A DNA stretch of 63,711 bases, counting the filler, from Reclinomonas americana ATCC 50394 (taxonomy: Eukaryota), in NCBI GenBank assembly GCA_048213135.1. It is 9 parts of 5 records of this genome, joined end to end, with 100 filler letters (N's around TTAATTAATTAA, not from the genome) between each part and the next. Parts side by side here need not be neighbours in the genome. Positions count along the whole stretch, not along the records: positions 1 to 19,655 come from PS015176.1; 8 more parts are not named here. The stretch is one strand, 5' to 3'. The stretch's first letter is position 1. Each line of letters begins with the position of its first letter. Below are positions 638-3,191 of this stretch, piece after piece. The position numbers and the translations under genes are program-made. Under the pieces are notes generated by a model that saw only the letters and a list, made by a program, of their open reading frames with translations, ran no database searches and was not told the origin of the DNA.

Positions 638-3191
638 NNNNNNNNNNNNNNNNNNNNNNNNNNNNNNNNNNNNNNNNNNNNNNNNNNNNNNNNNNNNNNN
701 NNNNNNNNNNNNNNNNNNNNNNNNNNNNNNNNNNNNNNNNNNNNNNNNNNNNNNNNNNNNNNNNNNNNNNNNNNNNNNNNNNNNNNNNNNNNNNNNNNNN
801 NNNNNNNNNNNNNNNNNNNNNNNNNNNNNNNNNNNNNNNNNNNNNNNNNNNNNNNNNNNNNNNNNNNNNNNNNNNNNNNNNNNNNNNNNNNNNNNNNNNN
901 NNNNNNNNNNNNNNNNNNNNNNNNNNNNNNNNNNNNNNNNNNNNNNNNNNNNNNNNNNNNNNNNNNNNNNNNNNNNNNNNNNNNNNNNNNNNNNNNNNNN
1001 NNNNNNNNNNNNNNNNNNNNNNNNNNNNNNNNNNNNNNNNNNNNNNNNNNNNNNNNNNNNNNNNNNNNNNNNNNNNNNNNNNNNNNNNNNNNNNNNNNNN
1101 NNNNNNNNNNNNNNNNNNNNNNNNNNNNNNNNNNNNNNNNNNNNNNNNNNNNNNNNNNNNNNNNNNNNNNNNNNNNNNNNNNNNNNNNNNNNNNNNNNNN
1201 NNNNNNNNNNNNNNNNNNNNNNNNNNNNNNNNNNNNNNNNNNNNNNNNNNNNNNNNNNNNNNNNNNNNNNNNNNNNNNNNNNNNNNNNNNNNNNNNNNNN
1301 NNNNNNNNNNNNNNNNNNNTCCCGCTGCAGTAGGGCCCTGACCACGTACAGTGGAGATGTCAACGCTGCGGTCAACCAGTGACGGATGCGACGACAGAGG
1401 AGTGTCGCTATCACCCTGTTGCGTTTGCAGGCCCTGCTCGTTCACGTGGCGCCATCTTGCACGCATGCTCACTGCCCTCGCAGGGAGTGAGTGCTTCTAG
1501 GTTGTCGCTTCACGCCATCATCCTACTGACACGTGTGCGCACTCTCCTCGATGTGTTCTCGCCTCTGTTCGATGCAGCAAGTTGCGTCGGCGGGTAGCAT
1601 AGTGCTGTCATGTCTGTGTGATTTACTCAACTAGTATCGTTTCATGCCTGTGCGCAGCAAGTTGAGTTACTCGTCTCGTGAGCAGCAATATGTTTGTGTA
1701 ATTTGTTGCTGATATCCGATGCACCCCAACATCGTGCGTGGAGCAGGCGGTGAGTGCATGCGTGCTGTTCCCTCTTTTGATGTGCCTGCTCACCATTCGG
1801 TCCCGTGCGCAGGTGGTGCGTGAACTGTTGCCTCTGTGTGGTCTTGTTACCGCGTTTGTTTTTTGGTTGTTTGTTCACTGTGGCGACCCTGCTCGCTTCT
1901 GCATGGATGGCTGCAATCGTAGCGGGTGAGTGAATATGTGTCCGTGTTTGTGTCACAATGAAAAAGACTGCGTTGCTCACGTGATGCGCAGCCGGTGAGT
2001 TCTTGTGTAGGCGCCATTGAATCTTGTTGAGCTACTACTGACGGGCACTCCTTGGTATCACGCGATTCCCAATCACAGCCGGTGAGCTGATGAGATATGA
2101 GTGCATTAATGTTCTCTGGCTGCCATTGCTTGCTCACTGACTTTCTCTTTCTCATGGTCGCAGTCGGTGAGTGATTTCCAGCTGCGAAACCCTTGATTCG
2201 TTCTCACATTGAATGTTTGGCTGACGCTCGACTACGATGAAATACAGGAGGTACGTGCCTGTCGTAGTCATATCCGTGGCCGCAGCGTCACGTGTCGGCT
2301 CACCGTTCAATCGTGTGTCTGTCTGTTCCTTTTTCTGCCGATTCGGTACAGATGGTTCGTTCCCTAGTCCTTGCTCACACTGTGCGTCTTTCGCTACTGA
2401 CTGGCAACGGGCACAGGGGGTCTGTTACTGGGGATACGATGTGGGCATGCTACTATTTGTCTGCTTGTCTGTGCTATCTCGCATGTGTGTCGTCAAACAT
2501 TCCTCTTGGTCTCTGCGATAGTGGTACGGGAGTAGTTCCTTTGTCCCCTTGCTTTGTTCGCTGTGATGTGTGGGTTCTGCATCGTGTTTCTGTTTGTGCC
2601 TCACAGATTGACTTCTTGCATGTTCGGACGGCAGGGAGTTGCGTTGTTGTGGCTTGGTGTGCTGTTTATCTTGTCTTCTCACTCACACGTACATTTATCG
2701 TTTGCCTGACAGACCGTTGCGTGGCGTAGCGTATTTCCCAGCTGCTCATCCTGTTTACTCACTCACACATGGCCACACGGCGGCGTTGGAACACCGACAG
2801 GCGGTACGTCTGCTTGGTTCTGTCTCTGTTCTCCCGCGCCCATTATCTCACTCGACCCGATCCACCACTACGTCTTTGCTGTGATGTGAGCAGGAGGTAT
2901 GTAATTCTGCAAGTATGGTGTGCTGGGAGTTTTTGATTCTCATTTCTTTTCCCCTTCGCAGTGGGTACGTTTTCGCCAGCAAACAACATCGTTGTTGTAG
3001 CCCGACTCATGTTGTTGTTCGTGCTCGTCTACTTCCTCGCTGGTACTGTACAGACGGTGAGTTCTTGCAGTGTTCATCGTGCTGCGGCGCACTGCCCACA
3101 CTCACAGTGGCACACTGCACAGTGGACGTGTTGCAATCAATCAGTGGGACCGCAGGCTGTTGGATGTGTTGTCGGCAAACACGTGCGGTGA
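1..3191 (+). CDS. 5'-partial gene: polyQ/Ser-Pro region, short coiled coil and a C-terminal Cys/His zinc-finger (REXO1-N/Btk-motif-like) whose loop is encoded by 19 micro-exons
   Basis: Phase-0 exons at 1-147, 223-303 (GSLSDLVRALAQQNRSANEDREQLQLQ) and 368-442. After the gap, exon 1352-1417 reads WRCQRCGQPVTDATTEECRYHP. Micro-exons span 1484-3056. Last exon 3123-3191 reads WTCCNQSVGPQAVGCVVGKHVR*. The first micro-exon, GGA, supplies the G of YHPG. Further exons may lie in the gap. Confidence 0.8.
546..637. repeat. (GA)n microsatellite in an intron, running into an assembly gap; representative of many GA/CT/CA tracts in the window
   Basis: Seen directly; similar tracts near 5040, 5175, 9490, 10530, 13410 and 32445. 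Confidence 0.95.
1418..3122 (+). other. Tandem array of 20 spliceosomal introns separated by 19 micro-exons (18 x 3 nt, 1 x 2 nt)
   Basis: YAG|NNN|GT units: GGA 1484, CAA 1578, CAA 1658, GCG 1747, GTG 1813, CGG 1923, CCG 1992, CCG 2079, TCG 2164, GAG 2248, ATG 2352, GGG 2417, TG 2522, GGA 2635, ACC 2713, GCG 2801, GAG 2894, TGG 2962, ACG 3054. Donors match those of ordinary introns in the window. CTGAC/CTCAC branch-like motifs precede many acceptors. Confidence 0.85.

Follow-up and report, generated by a model that had tools for sequence, protein, structure and literature searches.

Even single exons of 1 to 3 nt already strain models of splice-site recognition. Excerpts of published reports describe such ultra-short exons as isolated occurrences, including 1-nt exons in Arabidopsis APC11, plant VPS55 and a Fusarium P450 as well as exons of 3 nt (PMC4674806, PMC8831610, PMC12940212), and they record a Dactylellina lipS gene with two exons of 3 nt (PMC5639578) and, in rice, a pair of adjacent micro-exons measuring 5 and 12 nt (PMC8831610). 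Here we analyse 63,711 nt of the genome of Reclinomonas americana ATCC 50394 (GenBank assembly GCA_048213135.1; nine parts of five records joined end to end, referred to below as the window), in which positions 1418-3122 of the plus strand hold an array of what appear to be about 20 short introns in tandem, separated by single codons. The candidate exons of this array resemble those described in the cited excerpts in their length of 1 to 3 nt, in the ordinary introns around them, in being missed by gene finders and aligners, and in being explicable by one-by-one intron definition, but the exons in those excerpts are single or two per gene, whereas the array has 18 or 19 in succession with no normal exon between them. 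Searches of the full-text literature found no run of single-codon exons, in agreement with the first-pass annotation of this DNA, which knew of none; supplementary micro-exon catalogues (e.g. that of PMC8831610) could list adjacent micro-exons.

Micro-exons are known, as are intron definition and stepwise splicing, and the arrangement at this locus is an extreme new variant of them. During recursive splicing at the ratchet points of long Drosophila and human introns, an acceptor is followed at once by a donor and the intron is removed stepwise from 5' to 3'. The array likewise has a donor almost directly after each acceptor, and its removal would be stepwise, but a ratchet point has zero nt between AG and GT, leaves nothing in the mRNA and lies in a very long intron, whereas each step of the array would leave 3 nt and the introns are short. 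Schistosome micro-exon genes have exons of 6-36 nt, which make up most of the coding region of a secreted protein, and longer introns. They share with the array a succession of symmetric, very short exons whose skipping keeps the frame, but the putative exons of the array are single codons and would all lie in a single loop at the C terminus of a Cys/His-rich, coiled-coil protein. Finally, in classical intron gain by tandem duplication it is an exonic AGGT segment that is copied, and the mRNA stays as it was. The array is similar in that new introns would arise from duplicated sequence, introns 15 and 16 being a clear duplicate pair, and differs in that the duplicated unit would be a whole intron plus a codon, about 19 times over.

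The pattern that defines the array is a YAG acceptor, then 3 nt, then a GT donor, and it is found at 18 junctions along 1418-3122 (+) with a period of 65-113 nt; among the 19 junctions of this interval, that at 2522-2523 is the single one with a 2-nt spacer (TG). The first-pass annotation had read the region as a run of one-codon exons, and this pattern stands, with 18 spacers of 3 nt, far beyond what shuffled sequence yields. All eight junctions that it gave as examples lie where it placed them, and measurement of the intervals between junctions bears out its intron lengths of 62-111 nt. For counting, a loose match was defined as YAG-N3-GT and a strict match as YAG-N3 followed by the donor GT[AGT]NG[TC]. 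There are 88 loose matches on the whole plus strand of the window, and 20 of them fall in 1300-3300, where 18 are the evenly spaced junctions and two, at 1498 and 3153, are incidental. The density of loose matches is 11.1 per kb in the array against 1.2 per kb in the rest of the window on either strand, and any other 1705-nt segment of the 63.7 kb has at most seven. Strict matches on the plus strand number 20 in the window, 13 of which lie within 1400-3130. When 1418-3122 was shuffled 2000 times with preservation of dinucleotides, loose matches averaged 4.0 and reached a maximum of 12, compared with 19 observed, and strict matches averaged 0.55 and reached a maximum of 5, compared with 13 observed. 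Moreover, when the spacer in the strict search is set to 0-2 or 4-15 nt, just 0-2 matches fall in the array region, and junctions of the ratchet type, in which the acceptor abuts the donor, number 0 in the array versus the 13 strict junctions with a 3-nt spacer. The junction pattern is far above chance and specific for the 3-nt spacer. Equally dense YAG-N3-donor runs in control sequence, an outcome that the first-pass annotation had named as speaking against its interpretation, are seen neither in the shuffles nor elsewhere in the window. About 20 short introns in tandem with single codons between them is the reading favoured by these sequence data, which support it in part. A stringent search of the window for intron signals on both sides of a very short exon passes six of the array junctions and, elsewhere, five isolated candidates of 3-11 nt at four sites; a second micro-exon array within the window was not detected by this search. 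Isolated candidates passing the two-sided filter include one of 3 or 7 nt at 29317 (-) and one of 10 nt at 26452 (+).

The units, each consisting of a predicted intron and the candidate micro-exon that follows it, and the flanking exons are given below; distances of branch motifs are measured from the end of the intron.

1352-1417 (+): exon A, the upstream flank; follows acceptor cag at 1349-1351, ends in phase 0, lies in the open reading frame (ORF) 1334-1597
1418-1486 (+): unit 1; intron 1418-1483, 66 nt, donor GTTGCG, CTCAC at 12 nt; micro-exon 1484-1486, GGA
1487-1580 (+): unit 2; intron 1487-1577, 91 nt, donor GTGAGT; micro-exon 1578-1580, CAA
1581-1660 (+): unit 3; intron 1581-1657, 77 nt, donor GTTGCG; micro-exon 1658-1660, CAA; junction identical to that of unit 2 at 13 of 14 positions
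1661-1749 (+): unit 4; intron 1661-1746, 86 nt, donor GTTGAG, end gAGcAG; micro-exon 1747-1749, GCG
1750-1815 (+): unit 5; intron 1750-1812, 63 nt, donor GTGAGT, CTCAC at 20 nt; micro-exon 1813-1815, GTG
1816-1925 (+): unit 6; intron 1816-1922, 107 nt, donor GTGCGT, AG-free interior, acceptor tag; micro-exon 1923-1925, CGG
1926-1994 (+): unit 7; intron 1926-1991, 66 nt, donor GTGAGT, CTCAC at 12 nt; micro-exon 1992-1994, CCG
1995-2081 (+): unit 8; intron 1995-2078, 84 nt, donor GTGAGT, CTGAC at 37 nt; micro-exon 2079-2081, CCG
2082-2166 (+): unit 9; intron 2082-2163, 82 nt, donor GTGAGC, CTCAC and CTGAC at 27 and 23 nt; micro-exon 2164-2166, TCG
2167-2250 (+): unit 10; intron 2167-2247, 81 nt, donor GTGAGT, CTGAC at 23 nt; micro-exon 2248-2250, GAG
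2251-2354 (+): unit 11; intron 2251-2351, 101 nt, donor GTACGT, 3' part rich in pyrimidines, CT[CG]A[CT] absent from the range; micro-exon 2352-2354, ATG
2355-2419 (+): unit 12; intron 2355-2416, 62 nt, donor GTTCGT, CTGAC at 16 nt; micro-exon 2417-2419, GGG
2420-2523 (+): unit 13; interval 2420-2521, 102 nt, donor GTCTGT (weak), branch motif absent from the range, AG-free interior, acceptor tag; then TG at 2522-2523
2524-2637 (+): unit 14; interval 2524-2634, 111 nt, donor GTACGG, CTCAC and TTGAC at 31 and 23 nt; micro-exon 2635-2637, GGA
2638-2715 (+): unit 15; intron 2638-2712, 75 nt, donor GTTGCG, CTCAC at 31 and 27 nt, AG-free interior; micro-exon 2713-2715, ACC
2716-2803 (+): unit 16; intron 2716-2800, 85 nt, donor GTTGCG, CTCAC at 39 and 35 nt; micro-exon 2801-2803, GCG
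2804-2896 (+): unit 17; intron 2804-2893, 90 nt, donor GTACGT, end gAGcAG; micro-exon 2894-2896, GAG
2897-2964 (+): unit 18; intron 2897-2961, 65 nt, donor GTATGT, CTCAT at 19 nt, 88% pyrimidine tract; micro-exon 2962-2964, TGG
2965-3056 (+): unit 19; intron 2965-3053, 89 nt, donor GTACGT; micro-exon 3054-3056, ACG
3057-3122 (+): intron 20; 66 nt, donor GTGAGT, CTCAC at 18 nt
3097-3125 (+): 15-nt tandem duplication, two copies with 93% matches, running across the last acceptor and through codon 1 of exon B
3123-3191 (+): exon B, the downstream flank; phase 0, stop TGA at 3189-3191, lies in the ORF 2937-3191

All 20 intervals begin with GT and end with YAG, and the strong donor words GTGAGT (6), GTACGT (3) and GTTGCGT (4) occur in the region exactly at junctions in 13 of 13 cases. 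A CT[CG]A[CT] branch motif is found 10-45 nt before the acceptor in 15 of the 20 units, whereas 1000 dinucleotide shuffles give a mean of 5.5 and a maximum of 13. The AG-free stretch before the acceptor, assessed with the same number of such shuffles, has a median of 51 nt, compared with a shuffle mean of medians of 30.6 and a maximum of 50.5, and AG-free tails of at least 20 nt are present in 17 of 20 units. Within the interiors AG is depleted (29 observed versus 53 expected, z -4.1) and GA is not (z 0.0); because several further dinucleotides also deviate, the positional AG-free test outweighs the dinucleotide bias. The first-pass annotation was right that introns 1816-1922 and 2420-2521 are free of AG inside, and 2638-2712 is likewise. 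Its suggestion that the array introns look like ordinary ones here agrees with our by-eye reading of control introns in two other genes of the window, a SQS_PSY-family gene on the minus strand and a NHL-repeat gene on the plus strand, in which introns are about 60 to 400 nt long, donors (GTTGTG, GTTCGT, GTGCGG, GTTGCGT and GTGAGT) match those of the array, branches are of the CTGAC type and exon sizes are normal. On sequence criteria the array units are typical introns of this genome in everything but the size of the intervening exons, since length, donors and branches match the introns of these two genes, and in donor, branch motif and AG-free acceptor zone they would qualify as U2-type GT-AG introns. 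Introns 4 and 17 end (at 1739-1746 and 2886-2893) in gAGcAG, a tandem acceptor of the NAGNAG type, at which one further codon could be added or dropped. The SQS_PSY-family gene, at 57473-58400 (-), has three or four short introns of about 65-90 nt; its Atlas matches are at the level of the family, with an NDUFAF6-like cluster among the top ones at a score of 0.87, below the 0.9 level.

A series of short introns might also be expected if each harboured a small RNA, either a snoRNA or a hairpin, with the exons as mere spacers, and tandem introns with one snoRNA each are known from SNHG14 according to an excerpt of PMC11608373. Intron 9, where TGATGA lies close to the 5' end and CTGA close to the 3' end, would suit such a host, but the RUGAUGA box is present in 0 of 20 introns, and Rfam returns nothing at gathering level in the window and just SNORD94 (E 0.11, lying across a junction) at E up to 1. 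Furthermore, folding z-scores of -2.0 to +1.4 show no trend to structure, and intervals of 62-111 nt leave scant room for a snoRNA beside the splicing signals. We therefore reject a snoRNA or hairpin host, for want of box, gathering-level Rfam match and excess folding, as a very improbable explanation of the array.

The array appears to split a Cys/His-rich, zinc-finger-like C-terminal motif between two phase-0 exons. Exon A encodes W-x-C-x2-C-x11-C-x2-H-P and exon B encodes W-x-C-C-x9-G-C-x4-H, together seven Cys and two His in 44 residues; this pattern lies in one frame across both sides and so fixes the reading frame, and the two Cys/His patterns are unique in the six frames of the window. 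Earlier exons of the array gene (1-147, 223-304 and 366-441, +) are Gln-rich and coiled-coil-like, and are presumed to belong to the same gene as exon A, with a 682-nt gap between. We take the flanks to resemble zinc modules of the BTK-motif or CHORD type, in which His-Pro-Gly is followed some 7-11 residues on by Trp-x-Cys-Cys; that the first micro-exon, GGA (Gly), would supply the glycine of such a His-Pro-Gly is a lead only. Exon B gives a sub-threshold match to positions 12-25 of the 30 in the Pfam BTK motif (E 0.096, 13.1 bits, cut-off 24), and exon A does not match the Pfam BTK motif. Searches of protein databases returned nothing for the first exon (1-147) or for exon B with its in-frame upstream residues (3069-3188), and phmmer against PDB sequences returned nothing for exon B and generic zinc knuckles alone for exon A. 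When exon A plus two residues was compared, without a profile, with 1.84 billion representatives, nine proteins emerged at E up to 0.001, six of them with repeated W-x-C-x2-C-G strings and one with a repeated Cys-rich string including C-R-Y-H-P; in none of the nine does W-x-C-C come after the exon A pattern, and we rejected them as homologues. Among metagenome contigs, a 28-nt piece of exon B had 0 exact matches, and the protein pattern of 1334-1483 had 593 pattern matches, 0 of which were confirmed by tblastn. A membrane-protein ORF on the minus strand converges on the plus-strand gene, and its end (3268) is 76 nt from the stop of exon B (3189-3191). The locus is very compact, so that 1.7 kb of introns for 54 coding nt is conspicuous.

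Several observations weigh against the reading of the array as spliced introns that leave single codons in the mRNA. The 18 triplets add up to 54 nt and are in frame, but with the 2-nt junction the sum is 56 nt and out of frame, so that the spacer at junction 13 breaks the frame as assembled if every unit is used. The first-pass annotation had derived a peptide from about 56 coding nt; its sum is right, but 56 is not a multiple of three, the frame is broken as assembled and the peptide cannot be correct in its entirety. For the micro-exon that it gave as '(W)', 2522-2523 reads TG, 2 nt, and TGG presupposes a missing G that it left unstated. Junction 13 is also the weakest unit, having the donor GTCTGT before it, lying in a run of G and having no branch motif in range. 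Judging from these features, either junction 13 is dead, in which case 2420-2634 would be a single intron of 215 nt, or one G is absent from the draft and the exon would be TGG. In addition, the CT[CG]A[CT] motif is absent from the expected range in five of the 20 units, and the third position is G in 13 of 18 micro-exons, which suits the splice-site consensus as well as it suits coding; because the bases of the micro-exons fit the splice consensus too, they give no independent sign of translation. A 3-nt spacer at 18 of 19 junctions between two phase-0 exons would be expected if codons are read, but this regularity is weak evidence for translation, unconstrained indels being likely to alter only about four of the 19 spacers by what is a rough estimate and not a computed test. 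Lastly, the added codons would lengthen the loop beyond that of the zinc-binding motifs to which the flanks bear a resemblance, one for which the sole computed match is the sub-threshold one to the BTK motif.

Could the irregular junction, then, signal a flaw in the sequence itself? As a draft eukaryotic scaffold, the window contains 31 runs of N, and a missing base in the run of G at the 2-nt junction is plausible. Nevertheless, 1320-5113 is contiguous and gap-free, the 20 units differ almost throughout, so that they are no collapsed or expanded repeat, and an artefact of assembly or sequencing would not produce ordered intron anatomy. We consider it hardly credible that the array as such is an artefact of the draft scaffold.

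The defective junction, if tolerated, is easier to grasp if inclusion of the single-codon exons is not obligatory, and the introns may be real while these exons are mostly or variably skipped, which would give a ladder of 0 to 18 extra codons or mainly the join of 1417 to 3123. Any donor could pair with any later acceptor, all combinations of 3-nt exons being frame-neutral, and the array offers two NAGNAG-like acceptors and a further in-frame acceptor from the 15-nt duplication (3097-3125), which yields an upstream cag 15 nt before the acceptor at 3122. As read from the translations, the direct join gives the spacing C-x2-C-x14-H-x3-C, which we take to resemble the CCHC fingers that end coiled-coil proteins. 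The crowding of acceptor and donor, 3 nt apart, should also favour skipping, and an excerpt of PMC4674806 mentions that such crowding disfavours the inclusion of vertebrate mini-exons. On the other hand, the genes of the window have short introns with nearest-neighbour pairing, so that excision of 1.7 kb would be exceptional here, and the branch motif and AG-free zone are kept unit by unit, which would be needless if the outermost sites alone were used. Predominant or variable skipping is consequently a possibility that we take seriously but do not think probable.

Traces of the origin of the array are found in the units themselves. Local alignment of the intron interiors places four of 190 pairs above the 99th percentile of shuffles, and introns 15 and 16 are the sole pair beyond every null (they score 31, the highest null score being 26, and are 82% identical in register over 28 nt). 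Adjacent junctions are more alike than permuted ones, with a mean Hamming distance of 4.65 versus 5.59, a value as low being reached in 1.6% of 20000 permutations. Identical triplets stand side by side in units 2 and 3 (CAA CAA) and in units 7 and 8 (CCG CCG), and micro-exons 18 and 19 (TGG, ACG) are the first two codons of exon B. The 15-nt tandem duplication at the last acceptor is a further trace of this kind. On these traces we think it most likely that the array expanded as one intron together with one codon was duplicated in tandem again and again, and that long divergence followed, sparing only the splicing signals and the 3-nt spacing. Introners, by contrast, are dispersed near-identical copies, whereas the units of the array match nothing else in the 63.7-kb window: comparison with its other ~60 kb gave no significant match (best E 0.045), which leaves a repeat or introner family unsupported within the window. 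Descent of the introns from copies of exon A or exon B was also rejected, there being no alignment above shuffles, as were hidden genes over the array, since none of nine ORFs (five on the plus and four on the minus strand) has a Pfam family.

An array that arose by duplication might by now be a decaying relic, its signals present by descent at a gene end whose expression or function has been lost. One of the junctions is broken already (the 2-nt spacer with its weak donor and missing branch motif), and no homologue of the flanking exons was found in the searches described above. Yet the interiors have diverged in all but one pair while YAG and GT are present at 19 of 19 junctions, with a strict donor at 13, and if the duplication origin is right, retention of these signals while all else decayed argues that they are used. 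Moreover, AG exclusion and branch motifs exceed those of all shuffles, and both flanking exons are open, carry their seven Cys and two His, and end in a stop just before the convergent gene. Retention of the signals in the face of diverged interiors argues for selection on the junction signals, and a non-functional relic seems unlikely.

The pattern, its statistics and the anatomy of each unit lead us to infer that the array probably consists of individually spliced tandem introns that leave single-codon exons in the mRNA, having been built by duplication of intron plus codon. Each intron of 62-111 nt would be recognised singly by intron definition. The factors that bind an acceptor and the next donor, 3 nt apart, would be unable to sit side by side, and it follows from this narrow gap that neighbouring introns would have to be excised successively, each removal attaching one codon to the growing exon. 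In the mature mRNA, up to 18 extra codons (54 nt) would lie between the His-Pro of exon A and the Trp-x-Cys-Cys of exon B. Sequential splicing by intron definition may reasonably be inferred for the array, and a combined model of intron definition and recursive splicing has been proposed, according to an excerpt of PMC4674806, for the 1-nt exon of Arabidopsis APC11. A more speculative proposal, which we regard as doubtful though worth stating, is that the array behaves as an 'intron-codon minisatellite', in which duplication of intron plus codon adds introns while lengthening the loop; the array might then serve as a combinatorial splicing cassette producing a graded ladder of 0-18 residues in a zinc-binding module, and could also be a delay line of about 20 ordered splicing steps.

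The window has other features apart from the array. An open frame of 526 aa at 6359-7939 (+), without a Pfam family, contains many tandem Ala/Lys/Asp-rich repeats of the type 'AYDKAKDVAGAVADKVE', which are reminiscent of LEA or apolipoprotein-like amphipathic repeats. A complete classical protein-tyrosine-phosphatase (PTP) domain is encoded at 37508-38353 (-) by a single exon of 282 codons (Pfam E 6e-52). Its identity to PTPs, mainly from animals and largely of the receptor type, is 27-36%, and among proteins of 495-2000 aa the databases have no near-identical entry. At 541-637, 4900-5113, 9480-9540, 10490-10570 and 10985-11045 there are long microsatellites of (GA)n, (CT)n, (GT)n and (CCT)n, several of them abutting assembly gaps, and the gaps are often paired, with 44 N each and 12 bases between.

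If the proposed structure is true, 18 single-codon exons in a row would put intron definition to its most extreme natural test. With an acceptor and the next donor in one snRNP footprint twenty times running, the order, competition and fidelity of splicing would become readable from partly spliced intermediates. The array would also represent a way of gaining introns in which residues are added along with them. Because a structure of this type is invisible to gene finders, ORF tracks and spliced aligners, similar arrays may hide in other genomes.

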